A DNA stretch of 64,000 bases from a virus. The stretch lies in the IMG/VR virus record IMGVR_UViG_3300022927_000015, positions 8,313-72,312 of that record; one strand, given 5' to 3'. Below the pieces are notes generated by a model, which made no database searches, was not told the origin of the DNA, and saw nothing but the letters and a program-made list of their open reading frames with translations. Below are positions 7,962 to 62,163 of the stretch, one piece after another (the stretch's first letter is position 1; each line of letters begins with the position of its first letter). The translations under genes were made by a program, and so were the position numbers.

Positions 7962-8621
7962 TCATCCTTTTTCTTTATTTGCATTTAAAATAAAATACGC
8001 ATCTATTAAATCATCCAAAGGCTTGGGGATCTTTTCTGAAAAGTCTTTACCTTGAGTCCACTTCCACAATTCAGTTTTTCTCAGGTTCTTATCATTAAGT
8101 ACATCATCTTGAAATGCCTTAGCCATATAGTGCTTGTTTGCATTACCTTTACCTGCTAGCTTTTTAATATGAGAAGGTTGGTAAATTGATATCTTATTGA
8201 CACCCCATGCATTAACTAGCCTATTTCTTAAGAATGTGTTATACTGTACAATGTCAATAAATGAATTACCTTTAGAACCGTAAGAGAACCCTTCAAGAGA
8301 AACTTTATGTGAGTCTGTTCCAAAGAGTGTTATTAAGATATTTCCAATAAGATCGGCTATAGATTGACCGTCTGTCATTTTCTCTCGTTCTCTAAGTAAA
8401 AAATCCTTACTTGCTACATGCCTATAATAAGGAAAGCCTATTATGGTTTTACTGTCCATCAATTCTTTATGAACTGAAAATGCTTTAGGTATTTTACGGC
8501 CTTCTTCATCCCAGATACGATTACCGTAATTAAAGAAAGTTATAAACTTATATTCACCTTGATGGTTCTGTACACAAACACCTGGGCTATTGAGAGAAAA
8601 ATCAATTCCTGTATAAATCAC
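7962..8621 (-). CDS. RuvC-like (RNase H fold) Holliday junction resolvase
   Basis: GIDFSLNSPG, LEGFSYGS, PSHIKKLAGKGNANK, DDLIDAY catalytic acidic pattern. Confidence 0.8.
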   Translation of the reverse strand: MIYTGIDFSLNSPGVCVQNHQGEYKFITFFNYGNRIWDEEGRKIPKAFSVHKELMDSKTIIGFPYYRHVASKDFLLREREKMTDGQSIADLIGNILITLFGTDSHKVSLEGFSYGSKGNSFIDIVQYNTFLRNRLVNAWGVNKISIYQPSHIKKLAGKGNANKHYMAKAFQDDVLNDKNLRKTELWKWTQGKDFSEKIPKPLDDLIDAYFILNANKEKG

Positions 8622-35136: not shown

Positions 35137-36309
35137 TTATACTAAGTTCATTGTAATCTTACGATCTGCTGTATTGATACTTTGGATCTTAACTTGAAGC
35201 ATGTCTCCTTTAGTAACTTCAGTATCTTTAAGTTTGGTTTTATGTATAAGTCCACTAATACCTTTTTCCAATTCAACAAATGCGCCGTACTTAGTAACCT
35301 TGGTAACTTTACCTTCAGTAACCATCATTGGTTTATACTTTTCTTCAGCACCGTCCCATAGATCAACCTTAGGACCTTGTTGACTTAAAATGATTTTCTT
35401 TTCTGAAATAATTTCTTTAGTCCAAAAACTAATTTCATCACCCGGTTTAATTTCACGGTTTTCAAATTTGGCTAAAGTCTCTTCATCTATTTCATTTTTA
35501 GGAATTAATCCAGTGAGGCATTCATTAAATTCAGCAAAGATACCAAATTTAGTGGTACCTGTGACAAAGCCGGTAATATGATCTTTGATATTTTCTCTTA
35601 ACGACTCAACAGTGGAAGGTATCATAGTTCTTAAATATTCTCTATGAGAAACTACGATAGTTTGTTTTTCGTTTGAATATGTAATAGGCATTACAATAAG
35701 CTCTTTACCAACCAATACATTAAAGTCATAAAGCTTATTTAATCCACCTAAGGATCCTGGCATAAAACATTGGATTCCACCAACTTCAACCCAGTAACCA
35801 CCATGTATTAGTTCTTTGACATAACCAGTAAATCCTACTGTCTTATCTCCTATTGCAGCATAGATTTCATTTCTCTTAACTTCATCTAATGCATCTGCAA
35901 TTGAAGCATAAAGAACCCCTCTTGATTGTCTCTTTACTTTTATATCAACAGACATCCCAACCTCTAATTGGTCTACGATTTCTTTAGGTTCTTTTGTTAA
36001 CACACAAACAGCAGTATTCTTCTGTGAAATATCAATAAGTGCTTCAATTTTAGTTTCAACTTCCACATCATCTATGATTTGCTTAATCTTCTTAATGTGG
36101 ACTATTTCACCTTGTGTTATGTAATTATTTGCTTCTTCTGATTTTTGAAGTCGGACAACTTCCTCATCGGCTAGTTGATACATTTTAATAGCCTCAGCTG
36201 TATATGATTCGTTACATAATAGTTTTGTGCCTTTAGGTACCTGTACCTTTACTGTCTTTGTGTCAAATGGATCGTCGCTAAGCTGGATCGTGATTTCTTG
36301 TTCAATCAT
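35137..36309 (-). CDS. rpsA: Ribosomal protein S1-like protein (about 4 S1/OB domains)
   Basis: GYVKELIHGGYWVEVGGIQCFMPGS, GFVTGTTKFGIFAEF, GKVTKVTKYGAFVELEKGISGLIH. Confidence 0.85.
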   Translation of the reverse strand: MIEQEITIQLSDDPFDTKTVKVQVPKGTKLLCNESYTAEAIKMYQLADEEVVRLQKSEEANNYITQGEIVHIKKIKQIIDDVEVETKIEALIDISQKNTAVCVLTKEPKEIVDQLEVGMSVDIKVKRQSRGVLYASIADALDEVKRNEIYAAIGDKTVGFTGYVKELIHGGYWVEVGGIQCFMPGSLGGLNKLYDFNVLVGKELIVMPITYSNEKQTIVVSHREYLRTMIPSTVESLRENIKDHITGFVTGTTKFGIFAEFNECLTGLIPKNEIDEETLAKFENREIKPGDEISFWTKEIISEKKIILSQQGPKVDLWDGAEEKYKPMMVTEGKVTKVTKYGAFVELEKGISGLIHKTKLKDTEVTKGDMLQVKIQSINTADRKITMNLV

Positions 36310-57675: not shown

Positions 57676-58146
57676 TTAAAAATCACCAGGTGCAACTTGA
57701 AAACAAGATAGACCGTTATCTCTCCACATATCCACTACTTTTTGCCTATCATCAAACACACAAAAAATCCTGTCTTTTTTATCTCCAGGAAACAGATCAT
57801 CCAACCACATCTTCTTTAGCTTGTCATCGGCCATAAATTTGAAGTTACCACCAGTAGGTCTCATCTTAAGAACACTAAATGGTACTTTAAATTGATTAAG
57901 CCAATCCTTAGTGGCATCTTTGGTAGCTTTACTCCTACCAGAAAAGATTACAATCTGAAAGCCTTTGTCATGGAGTGCCTGTGCAGTTGCAATAACAGGT
58001 ACATTAGGCTGGTCCATACTGATGTTAGCAGGATCAAAAAATTTATCCCAATCCATTTTTCCATTGTCCTTAGTAGAAAAACTTCTCCGAGTATCAATAT
58101 CAGCAAGAGTTCCGTCAAGGTCAAAAATTACAATGTCTTTATCCAT
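57676..58146 (-). CDS. Polynucleotide 3'-phosphatase (PseT C-terminal HAD domain)
   Basis: FDLDGTLA, FSGR, LKMRP, FDDRQKVVDMWR..G..CFQVA.GDF. Confidence 0.88.
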   Translation of the reverse strand: MDKDIVIFDLDGTLADIDTRRSFSTKDNGKMDWDKFFDPANISMDQPNVPVIATAQALHDKGFQIVIFSGRSKATKDATKDWLNQFKVPFSVLKMRPTGGNFKFMADDKLKKMWLDDLFPGDKKDRIFCVFDDRQKVVDMWRDNGLSCFQVAPGDF

Positions 58147-58202: not shown

Positions 58203-58403
58203 TTATGAATTTTTTTCTTGTTCGGATCTAAGCTTCTGTTTGTAAATAGCCTTAAGCTTTTGTTTTCTTTTAACGGATGAAGGCTTTTCATATTCCTTCC
58301 TATCTCTAATTGACTGTACCTGTTTAATTCTCTTAGTCTTACGCTTATACCGTTTAAGCATTGTATCAATAGAGTCTTTTTCGTTTCTTTTAATTATTAT
58401 CAT
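58203..58403 (-). CDS. rpsU: 30S ribosomal protein bS21
   Basis: SIDTMLKRYKRK...RDRKEYEKPSSVKRK..KAIY. Confidence 0.93.
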   Translation of the reverse strand: MIIIKRNEKDSIDTMLKRYKRKTKRIKQVQSIRDRKEYEKPSSVKRKQKLKAIYKQKLRSEQEKNS

Positions 58404-59955: not shown

Positions 59956-60399
59956 TTAGGAATTTTTCACAACTGAACCAGAAGGTACCTCAGTATTAGC
60001 AGGAATAGTAACACCCTCGTACACGGTTACATTATCTCCAATAGTTACACCATCCTCAATGGTACAATTAATATCAATGACCGAATTAGCTCCAATGTAA
60101 ACTTGGTCACCAATTCTAGTTCCTGGTCTAACCAAAGAGCAGCATCCTACAACTAACCCTTTACCAACCACTGAGCCATCTAAAGTTTTACACCCATCAA
60201 AGAGTGTATGAAATAATGAACCATTAAGTACCGTGTTAGCTACAGTAAGTCGGTCATTACCATCCTCTAACGCAATAACCCAAGGCATATCAGCAGGTGC
60301 CTGATCATAATCTGTAGAATCATATTGAGCATAATCTCCCTTAGGAAGAAGCTGTGTAATTTTCTTGGCCCATTCGCCAGTACCATAAATGTTTATCAT
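59956..60399 (-). CDS. Hexapeptide-repeat sugar acetyltransferase-like (PglD/NeuD-like)
   Basis: IYGTG N-terminus; IGDQVYIGANSVI..CTIEDGVTIGDNV left-handed beta-helix; late promoter. Confidence 0.75.
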   Translation of the reverse strand: MINIYGTGEWAKKITQLLPKGDYAQYDSTDYDQAPADMPWVIALEDGNDRLTVANTVLNGSLFHTLFDGCKTLDGSVVGKGLVVGCCSLVRPGTRIGDQVYIGANSVIDINCTIEDGVTIGDNVTVYEGVTIPANTEVPSGSVVKNS

Positions 60400-60430: not shown

Positions 60431-60506
60431 TGGAGCGGAAGACGGGGTTCGAACCCGCGACCTATAGCTTGGAAGGCTATCGCTCTACCAACTGAGCTAC
60501 TTCCGC
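60431..60506 (-). tRNA. tRNA-Gly(TCC)
   Basis: GCGGAAG..CTTCCGC-T-CCA; loop CT-TCC-AA. Confidence 0.95.
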
Positions 60507-60510
60507 AAAT

Positions 60511-60571
60511 GCAGGATATCGCTTAACCTGCGGTGAGTGTACCTTTCACCTTGTTCCCTTGCGGTACTACG
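60511..60571 (-). ncRNA. Candidate structured RNA between tRNA-Arg and tRNA-Gly (bulged-G/GNRA hairpin plus two hairpins)
   Basis: UAGUA-CC-GCAA-GG-GAA; GGUGA/UCACC; GCAGG/CCUGC. Confidence 0.5.
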
Positions 60572-60582
60572 ATTTTTTAGTG

Positions 60583-60656
60583 TGAACCAGACAGGATTCG
60601 AACCTGTGACCGTCTGCTTAGAAGGCAGATGCTCTATCCAACTGAGCTACTGGTCC
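60583..60656 (-). tRNA. tRNA-Arg(TCT)
   Basis: GGACCAG/CTGGTTC acceptor; TCTGC-CTTCTAA-GCAGA. Confidence 0.95.
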
Positions 60657-60664
60657 ATGATAGA

Positions 60665-60760
60665 GGAAAGGGCTTCGGGTCTTTCGGGGTTCCTGGTTTG
60701 TTGGCTTTACTATGAACCCTTTTTCAATGGTACCAACCTAACAGCTTCACTACCCTTTCC
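60665..60760 (-). ncRNA. Candidate pseudoknotted ncRNA immediately 5' of tRNA-Arg
   Basis: Terminal stem GGAAAGGGU/GCCCUUUCC; crossing helices GUUGGU/GCCAAC and GGGUUC/GAACCC. Confidence 0.5.
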
Positions 60761-60767
60761 AAGTTAT

Positions 60768-61031
60768 TTAATCCAATGTACCTTCACACCATTCTTCATA
60801 GAAGGCGTCATGGATTGGATTATCATCTTCAAGACTTTCCCAACCGTCGTCGGTAAGAACATAGAAGTCTGTTCCTTTAGGCGTTTCAGCTACTCGGAAG
60901 GTTAGCTCTTCACCATCATCAGTACGAATATCATACTCTTTAGTGGTTGCCCACCAAACTTCTTTTGATTCTAAAACTTCAATATTCATTGGCATTTCGT
61001 ATTCATGAGTTTCTTTAACCTCAATAGTCAT
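60768..61031 (-). CDS. Acidic hypothetical protein
   Basis: 87 aa ORF. Confidence 0.65.
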   Translation of the reverse strand: MTIEVKETHEYEMPMNIEVLESKEVWWATTKEYDIRTDDGEELTFRVAETPKGTDFYVLTDDGWESLEDDNPIHDAFYEEWCEGTLD

Positions 61032-61699: not shown

Positions 61700-61888
61700 T
61701 TAGTCGTCATCTTTAAAAAACATTCCCCAAATGAAAACTAATACAAAGAAAGGCCATAGGAAAATCCACATAATCCTTTCTCCTACTGAAGGAGGTTCCA
61801 TTTCCATCCGTGAATAAATGTTCTCAAAAGAAAAGGCACAGGCTATTCCAACTAGGAAATATAGCATGGCTATTTGGATGAGGTTCAT
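61700..61888 (-). CDS. Small membrane protein
   Basis: Two TM segments, IFLWPF. Confidence 0.65.
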   Translation of the reverse strand: MNLIQIAMLYFLVGIACAFSFENIYSRMEMEPPSVGERIMWIFLWPFFVLVFIWGMFFKDDD

Positions 61889-62163
61889 ACTTGAGCTAAT
61901 TCTTTAATTTGTGCATCACTAAGGCTACCAATCTTCTTACCTTTAACCTCGCCATTTTCCATATAGACCGTAGTAGGAATAGATCTGATTCCATACTTTT
62001 GAGCCAATTCAGTTTCTTGGTCTACATTTACAAAGACTACCTCTACTTCGGATTGTTCTTCTGCGAATTTTTCCATTCTAGGTTTCATCATTTTACATGG
62101 TCCGCACCATGATGCCCAAAAGTCAACTAATACCCGTGGGCCATTTAAATCTTCTTGTGTCAT
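61885..62163 (-). CDS. trxA: Thioredoxin
   Basis: DFWASWCGPC, VNVD, GIRSIPT. Confidence 0.95.
   Translation of the reverse strand: MTQEDLNGPRVLVDFWASWCGPCKMMKPRMEKFAEEQSEVEVVFVNVDQETELAQKYGIRSIPTTVYMENGEVKGKKIGSLSDAQIKELAQV

Follow-up and report, generated by a model that had tools for sequence, protein, structure and literature searches.

The 75-nt spacer between two tRNA genes of the window (the whole stretch analysed, 64,000 nucleotides, positions 8,313 to 72,312 of IMG/VR record IMGVR_UViG_3300022927_000015) belongs to an uncatalogued family of small structured RNAs that is widespread and strongly conserved in large uncultured phages. On balance, we take the spacer to be the window's single copy of a structured RNA gene of about 60-100 nt that large uncultured tailed phages carry in a tRNA operon, and whose product is probably a stable RNA excised by tRNA processing. 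The family is absent from Rfam 15. A sequence-only reading of this DNA had proposed a non-tRNA RNA between the tRNAs, and further that it mimics ribosomal RNA and acts as a decoy. The first proposal was borne out in outline, since the layout and covariation of the family point to a structured RNA that fills the spacer on the tRNA strand; the second has been largely refuted, the likeness being at chance level and the hairpin that carries it dispensable.

The spacer occupies positions 60507-60581 on the minus strand, downstream of tRNA-Arg(tct) (60582..60656, minus strand; an ARAGORN call with 73.7 bits against the Rfam tRNA model) and upstream of tRNA-Gly(tcc) (60431..60506, minus strand; also an ARAGORN call, 76.3 bits). 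CCA is encoded in tRNA-Gly and not in tRNA-Arg, in which the discriminator A at 60583 is followed by C at 60582. Read along the minus strand, the spacer begins with the leader A-C-U-A6-U-C-G (60570..60581) and continues with H1 (60554..60568), an rRNA-like hairpin in which AGUA and GAA flank CC-GCAA-GG, and the junction CAA (60551..60553), whose two As before H2 are near-invariant in the family. H2 (60532..60550) has the stem GGUGA/UCACC and the 9-nt loop AAGGUACAC, H3 (60511..60531) has the stem GCAGG/CCUGC and the 11-nt loop UUAAGCGAUAU, and the tail AUUU (60507..60510) puts a U just before the next tRNA, at -1, where RNase P would presumably cut. The letters from which the sequence-only reading set out are indeed there, 60570-60511 of the minus strand being GUAGUACCGCAAGGGAACAAGGUGAAAGGUACACUCACC followed by GCAGG-UUAAGCGAUAU-CCUGC. 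Folded by itself, the spacer was no better than its shuffles (z = -1.26); the reality of its RNA follows from homologues and not from the window sequence alone. The 119-nt stretch upstream of tRNA-Arg also folded as its shuffles did (z = -0.03), and it is present only in near-identical relatives.

A scan with the H3-loop pattern returned at least 117 viral loci; among the 127 matches listed, 108 were accompanied by the AAAUC anchor and had the two outer pairs of H3. The family amounts to 77 distinct sequences, with the site carried by at least 109 loci, which are uncultured viral contigs almost without exception. The window scored 100.9 bits with the family model (E 3e-22), a value to be read with the window's own place in the seed in mind, and members outside the seed scored 33-77 bits. 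The layout is fixed: the tRNA discriminator (N73), C, A7 and UCG, then H1 (variable or absent), AA, H2 (5-7 bp), H3 (5 bp) abutting it, a tail of 4-6 nt, and the next tRNA. In the window, the leader has A6 after CACU, whereas the family consensus has C-A7-UCG straight after the discriminator. The window holds exactly one copy of the element, and each of five large records out of five (157-271 kb, two of them 100% complete) gave one model match at E<=0.01. Among 185,579 bacterial species genomes there were three pattern matches, two of which the model backs, on contigs of a Gammaproteobacteria MAG (37.5 bits) and of Sphingobacterium (25.7 bits). When two family members were compared by blastn with 50,697 cultured-phage records, the only matches were at chance level and in coding regions, Rfam 15 had no match to members of three subfamilies at E<=10, and literature text searches turned up no description of the motif, which may sit unnamed among the 8,495 candidate RNAs from IMG/VR catalogued in PMC10690425. 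With strict filters and a cut-off of E<=0.1, the model also found nothing in four huge uncultured phages, which is no proof of absence. Those same four phages encode UvsW-like helicases 36-57% identical to that of the window.

The evidence for the structure comes from H2 and H3. In a 96-row alignment, itself fitted to the family model, 98.3% of their cells are paired, both partners have changed in 10 of the 12 pairs, and there are 145 doubly changed cells, a number that 0 of 500 shuffles reached; as a control, sliding the register on the same alignment left only 33-48% of cells paired. RNAalifold on an unfitted 16-row MAFFT alignment recovered the same H1, H2 and H3, and added two pairs within the H3 loop. 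All five pairs of H2 covary, as do the outer two of H3, the inner AGG/CCU being invariant. The strand can also be told from these stems, as they contain 24 G-U cells against 3 non-standard ones, and the G-U pairs would be A-C mismatches if read on the other strand, which places the RNA on the tRNA sense strand. It is on these grounds that a site acting as DNA, i.e., a target for recombination, replication or a homing endonuclease, appears very improbable to us. The single copy per genome would suit such a site, as would the A-tract, the palindromes, and the HNH or NUMOD3 ORFs nearby (the largest ORF family, its longest member with HNH domains, at 24 of 109 loci), but the element always lies on the tRNA sense strand, G-U pairs far outnumber mismatches, and compensatory changes preserve its hairpins as the sequence drifts.

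Conservation extends beyond the stems. Of 74 parsed members, 71 have AA directly before H2, the 11-nt H3 loop (UUAAGCGAURU) is invariant save for two single-base variants, the leader is almost invariant as well, and in all about 25 unpaired or junction nucleotides are near-invariant across the family. Such constancy in very different phages argues for a conserved partner, which the RNA might bind or titrate, and which would most likely be a protein, or another RNA, with a part in translation or tRNA metabolism. In the window, the H3-loop motif GCGAU is complementary to the leader motif AUCGU, and pairing between the two is a candidate long-range contact. Both sides being invariant, no covariation can speak for it, and the rare exceptions are divided: among three true variants, L140 retains a G-U pair, and L141 and L043 have mismatches. 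These came from a scan for H3-loop variants, which gave three loci with two true members (one with the G-U pair kept, one with a mismatch), and a scan for leader-G variants, which gave four loci, including the mismatched L043, with L112 identical to it in sequence, and L247, a chance match. A scan of metagenomes for leader-C variants gave 104 loci, with none family-like among the matches listed. A pseudoknot between GUACC of H1 and GGUAC of the H2 loop was considered and rejected, because many relatives have GGAAC in the loop while their H1 is unchanged.

The H2 loops differ from phage to phage, and most of them contain a self-complementary stretch. Palindromes of 4 nt or longer occur in 29 of 39 distinct loops, those of 6 nt or longer in 15, and those of 8 nt or longer in five; shuffling gave means of 12.4, 2.3 and 0.3, and in 2000 shuffles none of the three counts was attained once. 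The palindromes themselves change, e.g., GAUAUC, GCUAGC, GACGUC, UGCGCA and UGGCCA. This enrichment suggests that the RNAs could form kissing-loop dimers through H2. A comparable arrangement is the retroviral dimerisation initiation site, a hairpin loop with a purine-flanked, self-complementary core of 6 nt that varies between strains and remains palindromic. Several 9-nt H2 loops of the family have that very format (AA-UGCGCA-A, AA-UGGCCA-A, AA-UAGCUA-A and AA-UGUACA-A), although the contexts are unrelated, the family dimer is predicted from loop sequences, and the loop core of the window is 4 nt. In the window's subfamily, the palindrome is weak (GUAC, 4 nt, within AAGGUACAC) or absent (GGAACA loops), so dimerisation may not be universal. 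Among phage RNAs, PMC12286853 describes ROOL and GOLLD as noncoding RNAs of phages and prophages, of unknown function, that are often found by tRNA islands and self-assemble into multimers. They differ from the family in their size (500-800+ nt as given there, versus about 60-100 nt), in forming cages of 8 or 14 copies, where a single self-complementary loop leads us to expect a dimer at most, and in that the family matches nothing in Rfam. If the homodimer is real, it would be a compact counterpart of the ROOL and GOLLD assemblies in phage tRNA islands.

The ribosomal RNA look of one hairpin, H1, is incidental. The window's H1 is like the hairpin at nt 457-471 of E. coli 23S (domain I) and the bulged-G motif of sarcin-ricin type in having AGUA opposite GAA, two C-G pairs and a GNRA cap, and 20 of 23 aligned bases are identical between the window and E. 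coli 23S nt 457-479, which read AGUACCGUGAGGGA-AAGGCGAAA; the Rfam LSU consensus draws only two C-G pairs there, those closing the GUGA loop. At the level of sequence, 60554-60568 of the minus strand answers to a bulged-G (sarcin-ricin or loop E type) test, with a putative internal loop of that type under the GNRA cap. This is a recurrent structural module, confined to the dispensable hairpin of one subfamily, and not evidence of mimicry. In the alignment to 23S rRNA that had been put forward as a check, the spacer scored 24; its dinucleotide shuffles gave that score or a higher one 43 times in 1000, and of the 3456 other 75-nt tiles in the window, 80 did at least as well against the same 23S, which is within chance. 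The Rfam LSU model did not match the spacer, and the family covariance model had no match in E. coli 23S at E<=1. Nor is the combination of AGUA, GNRA and GAA conserved: GUACC-N4-GGGAA is present in only 12 of 60 distinct H1 segments, 10 of them with AGUA, and the remaining segments are unrelated hairpins or 5-8 unpaired bases. The sequence-only reading had itself named similarity within chance, or homologues that do not keep these elements, as grounds for giving up the mimic, and both are what we found. Judged by these segments, H1 is a variable and dispensable part of the family, and its rRNA-like form is limited to one subfamily, in which it would be a peripheral decoration.

Among relatives with AGUA and GAA unchanged, the H1 tetraloop may be GCAA, GAGA, GUGA, GAAA, GUUA or GUAA. 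As a universal GNRA cap H1 does not qualify, since RNAfold gave a GNNA tetraloop in only 15 of the 55 H1 segments that were 11 nt or longer, a count from which about eight further segments of the AGUA subfamily are missing through being drawn one base off. GGUGA, in the middle of the 23S likeness, forms the 5' side of H2 and in relatives covaries to UGUAG, UAUGG and others. Likewise, mimicry of the 16S 3' end (from UCGUA..ACAAGGU and ACCGUAGG..CCUGC) was rejected, as 742 of 1000 shuffles scored at least as high as the window; for the family, the mean best score was 17.5 versus 17.7 for shuffles, and 12 of 75 best matches lay at nt >=1470. For the conserved core, i.e., the A7-UCG leader and the UUAAGCGAURU loop, no likeness to rRNA was found in 23S or 16S. 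A decoy for ribotoxins or ribosomal proteins, mimicking 23S domain I or a sarcin-ricin-like element, is thus hardly credible, even with the 23S-like bases of the window's H1 and the ten further distinct H1 segments that retain AGUACC-N4-GGGAA counted in its favour: chance accounts for the similarity, most of the family has a different H1 or none, its tetraloop is not fixed, GGUGA covaries away, and the 16S likeness does not rise above shuffles. The sequence-only reading had also set the RNA alongside phage bS21 and S1. Both are encoded in the window, bS21 at a distance of 2 kb and S1 as an S1-domain protein, but bS21 occurs in just 6 of 16 motif-bearing records. A tight link between the family and bS21 is ruled out by this count, together with those for motif-bearing records that are at least 90% complete (1 of 6) and for controls (1 of 5).

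A same-strand tRNA ends directly upstream of the element in 58 of 82 distinct instances, with 13 anticodon types represented, tRNA-Arg(tct) being the commonest (15 of 58), and in 50 of those 58 instances the linker from the tRNA end to UCG is exactly C+A7. In 51 of the 82, H3 is followed at a distance of 4-8 nt by the start of a called tRNA, with U as the last spacer base in 45 of the 51, and several of the instances scored as having no tRNA are atypical tRNAs missed by ARAGORN. The flanking tRNAs vary from phage to phage, and those upstream have no encoded CCA. Some members follow non-tRNA sequence and still keep the A-run and UCG, so an upstream tRNA is not obligatory.

This strict spacing could equally mean a cis role on the upstream tRNA, and the main rival to a stable excised RNA is a cis-acting module for tRNA 3'-end processing, which might be a small self-cleaving ribozyme of a new class, a reading that we hold to be unlikely. 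Its cut would fall on the discriminator-C-A7 junction or close by and would leave the upstream tRNA ready to receive CCA, the part taken by theta ribozymes. The latter, HDV-like ribozymes of gut phages, are reported in PMC10879173 to lie within 5 nt of phage tRNAs, 4.5% of which encode CCA, and a role in 3'-trailer processing is proposed for them there. The family resembles them in being small structured RNAs a few nucleotides from the 3' end of mostly CCA-less phage tRNAs, and this precedent speaks for catalysis, as do the start of the motif one base past the discriminator, the rigid linker, the absence of CCA, and the roughly 25 near-invariant unpaired or junction nucleotides with a possible pseudoknot, which are typical of small ribozymes. 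In addition, the window encodes, 2.4 kb from the element, a protein with a PNKP-type 3'-phosphatase domain that could heal a cyclic-phosphate end. Against this, the element occurs once per genome behind 13 tRNA types, which means that most tRNAs in the same arrays manage without it, and members with no upstream tRNA retain the leader. Three consecutive hairpins misfit the nested double pseudoknot of theta and other HDV-like ribozymes, the ribozyme families of Rfam 15, HDV-type models included, were unmatched at E<=10 in three subfamilies, and it is hard to see what a palindromic kissing loop would do for cleavage in cis. The habitats also differ, the runs that hold the window being labelled salt marsh or marine.

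A further proposal concerns the origin of the element and not its function: H1, H2 and H3 would answer to arms of a tRNA of class II, tRNA-Ser for example, with the product possibly a tRNA mimic. The family model weakly matches phage tRNA-Ser(tga) genes at the same loci (17-22 bits, E 0.0008-0.012, in a search of 23.6 kb), and in these matches H1 (GUACC-GNAA-GG) corresponds to the variable arm and the H3 stem (GUAGG/CCUAC) to the T stem. The element is also tRNA-sized, its A-run of 7 nt followed by U stands in the place of the acceptor strand and position 8, and H2 and H3 have 5-bp stems. Descent from a tRNA gene seems improbable all the same, given that members of three subfamilies went unmatched by the Rfam tRNA model (RF00005) at E<=10, ARAGORN makes no call on the spacer beyond the tRNAs on either side, the A-run has no 3' strand to pair with, the likeness of H1 is confined to one subfamily, and the H3 loop is 11 nt and not 7.

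The stable, excised RNA that we favour has its precedent in T4. The sequence-only reading had pointed out that T4 tRNA clusters release stable non-tRNA species; in the T4 annotation, the species 1 and 2 RNAs (rnaC and rnaD) lie in the tRNA operon and, like the spacer RNA of the window, directly 3' of tRNA-Arg. According to PMC9697503, their function is still unknown. They differ in length (119 and 139 nt) and in lying at the end of the cluster, where the family element sits between two tRNAs, and homology was not detected, as the family model run with filters off over the 6-kb T4 tRNA region gave 6.6 bits at best and nothing on rnaC or rnaD. Based on this precedent and the layout, the element would be co-transcribed with the tRNAs, and two steps of tRNA maturation would release it, the RNase P cut that forms the 5' end of the tRNA behind it and the 3'-end processing of the tRNA in front, yielding a tRNA-sized stable RNA. 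The product may adopt a compact fold, in which leader AUCGY pairs with the H3-loop GCGAU while the As of the A-run and the junction pack on the helices, and two molecules might join via the self-complementary H2 loop. In RNA-library run X2, contigs overlap the spacer (records 17-19), none of them with 31 letters either side of a tRNA junction, and in runs X1, X17 and X18 the spacer is without cover; assembled contigs of this kind reveal no RNA ends and prove no transcription, and the libraries may contain DNA.

The puzzle of T4 species 1 and 2 is decades old, and the family offers a much better handle on the extra RNAs of tRNA clusters, being small, single-copy and present at more than 100 loci of uncultured phages, with clear covariation, a near-invariant core and a dimer-like loop. 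Its small size, single copy and conserved core should make the RNA easy to synthesise, fold, mutate and use in pull-downs. There is a smaller chance that it represents a new class of small phage RNA, either a ribozyme that trims tRNA 3' ends or a kissing-loop homodimer that captures a universal component of the tRNA or translation machinery via the leader-loop knot. Should it prove catalytic, the known ribozymes would gain a class with a role in tRNA maturation; should it be a decoy or scaffold, it could lead to a conserved factor, of the host or the phage, that large phages manipulate.

As for neighbouring proteins, no universal one was found within 5 kb of the site, where the most widespread ORF family covers 24 of 109 loci. 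ORFs for HNH or NUMOD3 endonucleases are the commonest neighbours, and the longest member of the largest family, at those 24 loci, has HNH endonuclease domains. The next families occur at 21 of 109 loci (with no assigned identity) and at 19 of 109, the longest member of the latter being RNaseH-like.

The spacer occupies 75 nt on the minus strand of the window (60507-60581), between the genes for tRNA-Arg(tct) (60582-60656, minus) and tRNA-Gly(tcc) (60431-60506, minus), and reads, from 60581 to 60507, A-C-U-A6-UCG-U-AGUA-CC-GCAA-GG-GAA-CAA-GGUGA-AAGGUACAC-UCACC-GCAGG-UUAAGCGAUAU-CCUGC-AUUU, letters that the sequence-only reading had transcribed correctly. The window belongs to a 72-kb fragment, rated at 26% by CheckV, from a large phage of myovirus-like type that encodes a DNA ligase, a UvsW-like helicase and a baseplate wedge protein; its DNA also turns up in runs with salt marsh or marine labels. 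Taken alone, the spacer folded only slightly better than its shuffles (z = -1.26), and neither gathering scores nor a cut-off of E<=10 brought an Rfam 15 match to it. Upstream of tRNA-Arg lie 119 nt of non-coding sequence (60657-60775, minus) with a long-range stem, GGAAAGGG/CCCUUUCC; this sequence folded no better than shuffles (z = -0.03), and a 20-nt probe from it, GGAAAGGGUAGUGAAGCUGU, had matches in near-identical relatives alone (L004, L007 and L008, three of the other loci compared with the window).

When IMG/VR was scanned for patterns taken from parts of the spacer, relatives emerged in which the same element lies between other tRNA pairs, and a scan with only the loop of the 3' hairpin (AGGUUAAGCGAU-NN-CCU) found at least 117 loci; an AAAUC anchor no more than 140 nt upstream, together with both outer hairpin pairs, was present in 108 of the 127 matches listed. 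The family set comprises 77 distinct sequences and 109 loci with a common plan: the tRNA discriminator is followed by C, A7 and UCG, then by H1, a hairpin highly variable in sequence and length or merely 5-8 unpaired bases, by AA (71 of 74 members), by H2, whose stem has 4-7 bp (mostly 5 bp), and by an abutting H3 (N-N-A-G-G, loop UUAAGCGAURU, C-C-U-N-N), whose 4-6-nt tail leads to the next tRNA. From 16 sequences a covariance model was built that gave one strong match per locus, scored other-subfamily members at 33-77 bits, and had exactly one match (E<=0.01) in each of five large records, which measure 157-271 kb and include two that are 100% complete; the window, too, has one copy. The element is nearly restricted to viral contigs, 185,579 species genomes yielding three pattern matches, two of them with model support. 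Searches by blastn with two family queries against 50,697 deposited phage genomes returned nothing beyond chance-level hits, and four huge uncultured phages with UvsW-like helicases 36-57% identical to that of the window had no model match at E<=0.1 under strict filters. One copy, in locus L020 (6109-6183, minus), is truncated: it keeps H2 and H3, whereas sequence resembling the window's pre-tRNA-Arg stretch stands in place of its leader, its upstream tRNA and most of its H1. It looks like a deletion derivative.

Ninety-six matches, 77 of them distinct, were aligned by fitting to the model, a procedure that leans towards it. In this alignment 98.3% of cells held standard pairs and 10 of the 12 pairs showed double-sided change, with 145 doubly changed cells; none of 500 column shuffles attained even one of the five measures, and pairing fell to 33-48% when the registers were slid. 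Because of that leaning, RNAalifold was also run on an ungapped MAFFT alignment of 16 sequences, and it returned the same H1, H2 and H3, six pairs with compensatory changes, and two extra pairs within the H3 loop. The excess of G-U cells in H2 and H3 (24, against three non-standard cells) assigns the structure to the sense strand of the tRNAs, i.e., to RNA. A family with this secondary structure is, to our minds, almost certain. The leader and H3-loop nucleotides outside the H1-H3 stems are extremely conserved, and the leader AUCGU can pair with the loop's GCGAU in 14-16 of the 16 aligned sequences, both sides being invariant. Directed variant scans found three true variants, one retaining the pairing through G-U and two mismatched, and a metagenome scan for leader variants found none that was family-like among the matches listed; a leader-loop knot is accordingly put forward tentatively, with the balance leaning slightly against it. 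Some 25 invariant unpaired or junction nucleotides common to very different phages, along with the conserved AGG/CCU pairs, suggest a compact fold that would be recognised by a conserved partner.

The variability of H1 bears directly on the proposal that the spacer mimics helices 23-24 of 23S rRNA as a decoy for ribotoxins or ribosomal proteins. At nt 457-479 the E. coli 23S rRNA reads AGUACCGUGAGGGA-AAGGCGAAA, where only CC/GG, around the tetraloop, is paired in the Rfam LSU consensus. The alignment of spacer and 23S rRNA scored 24, a value within chance, since 43 of 1000 dinucleotide-shuffled spacers and 80 of the 3456 other 75-nt tiles of the window reached it too. The AGUA/CC-GNNA-GG/GAA hairpin is simply H1 in one subfamily: among 60 distinct H1 segments, AGUACC-N4-GGGAA occurs in 10 and GUACC-N4-GGGAA in two more, the others being unrelated hairpins (GAUG-GAAA-CAUC, CCCG-GUAACA-CGGG), long inserts or hairpin-free. 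The GGUGAAA of the apparent match forms the 5' strand of H2, and relatives have UGUAG, UAUGG, UAUAG, etc. there instead. The feature first pointed at is real and worth bench work, although its interpretation as an rRNA decoy is without support. The family model also weakly matches (17-22 bits) tRNA-Ser(tga) genes of the same phages (L021 7728-7777, L024 259-308 and L065 5784-5833), with H1 falling on the variable arm (GUACC-GCAA-GGU; GUACC-GNAA-GGU) and the H3 stem on the T stem, so the H1 hairpin is at least as like the phage's own tRNA-Ser as it is like rRNA. The likeness possibly points to a class II tRNA as the origin of the element or of its H1; the Rfam tRNA model did not match three subfamily members at E<=10.

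The H2 loops vary between phages in a way that keeps their self-complementarity. Among 39 distinct loops, perfect palindromes of at least 4, at least 6 and 8 nt were present in 29, 15 and 5, respectively (shuffled means 12.4, 2.3 and 0.3), and none of 2000 shuffles attained any of these counts. Examples are GAUAUC, GCUAGC, GACGUC, UGCGCA, UGGCCA, UAGCUA, UGUACA, GUGCAC, UGAUCA and GCUGCAGC, usually flanked by As, the same format as in retroviral dimerisation hairpins. Such variation suggests a symmetric loop-loop (kissing) homodimer, in which the element would pair through its palindromic H2 loop. The argument is weaker for the window copy, since its loop has GUAC only and its closest subfamily includes palindrome-free loops (GGAACA), and for the element at large we consider the chances of a dimer about even.

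ARAGORN placed the end of a same-strand tRNA directly upstream in 58 of 82 distinct instances, with 13 anticodon types, most commonly Arg(tct) (15) and Arg(acg) (8); the linker was exactly C plus seven As in 50 of the 58, and none of those tRNAs encoded CCA. Several "no tRNA" instances are atypical tRNAs that ARAGORN overlooked, and a few members are preceded by non-tRNA sequence and retain the A-run and UCG. Just downstream of the motif, eight loci (L038, L048, L054, L069, L093, L098, L131 and L047) carry tRNA-like genes, uncalled by ARAGORN, in which the anticodon loop has CCA (Trp) and the D-arm region is unusual, and L079 and L083 have similar uncalled tRNA-Ser-like genes. The rigid C+A7 spacing and the CCA-less upstream tRNAs would suit a cis-acting ribozyme for tRNA 3'-processing, the main rival, analogous in role to the theta ribozymes as outlined in PMC10879173; with one copy per genome, members lacking an upstream tRNA and a putative kissing loop, we hold it to be unlikely. 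The single copy, the differing flanking tRNAs and the dispensability of the upstream tRNA argue instead for a free-RNA gene and against a general processing signal.

A tRNA starts 4-8 nt past H3 in 51 of the 82 instances, and in 45 of these the last spacer base is U, the base that RNase P prefers at -1. The boundaries would fit a release in which RNase P cuts at the downstream tRNA and the upstream tRNA is processed at its 3' end, yielding a tRNA-sized RNA, as with the T4 species 1 and 2 RNAs. Assembled contigs from RNA libraries, which neither prove transcription nor show ends, overlapped the spacer in one of four runs, the other three leaving it without cover, and none had 31 letters on each side of a tRNA junction. 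That the element is excised as a stable RNA is, we believe, probable, and the entire scheme of an excised stable RNA with a compact fold, a conserved partner and dimerisation is favoured by a small margin. The T4 species 1 and 2 RNAs lie downstream of tRNA-Arg, as does the window element, and their function is described as still unknown in the account of PMC9697503. T4 rnaC and rnaD did not match the family model, and Rfam 15 had no family matching three different subfamily members at E<=10. Text searches of the literature brought no description of the motif to light; a catalogue of 8,495 unnamed IMG/VR candidate RNAs (PMC10690425) could include it. We place the element, as a new form, among the structured RNAs of phage tRNA islands, a kind already known.

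A neighbourhood search for a partner gave only homing-endonuclease-type and RNaseH-like ORFs in the phage tRNA arrays, each at no more than 24 of the 109 loci: families whose longest members carry HNH (L110 6397-7020 and 23 other loci) or NUMOD3 (13 loci) domains or are RNaseH-like (PF04308, 19 loci), these families being represented also at L067 9707-10375 and L073 1815-2294. The phage S1 and bS21 proteins that had been set beside the RNA are both encoded in the window, as an ORF of 390 aa that carries two S1 RNA-binding domains (35137-36309, minus; PF00575, 47.7 and 37 bits) and a bS21 homologue that lies within the tRNA region at some 2 kb from the element (58236-58394 in ORF 58203-58403, minus; PF01165, 33.2 bits). 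The association with bS21 did not extend far, as it occurs in 6 of 16 motif-bearing records, one of the six such records that are at least 90% complete, and one of five controls. Adjoining the tRNA cluster is an ORF of 156 aa (57676-58146, minus) in which a PNKP-type HAD 3'-phosphatase domain was recognised (PF25109, E 2e-29) and which could serve tRNA repair or end-healing, and small ORFs among the tRNAs encode a hexapeptide-repeat transferase-like protein and a thioredoxin (59956-60399 and 61885-62163, both minus).
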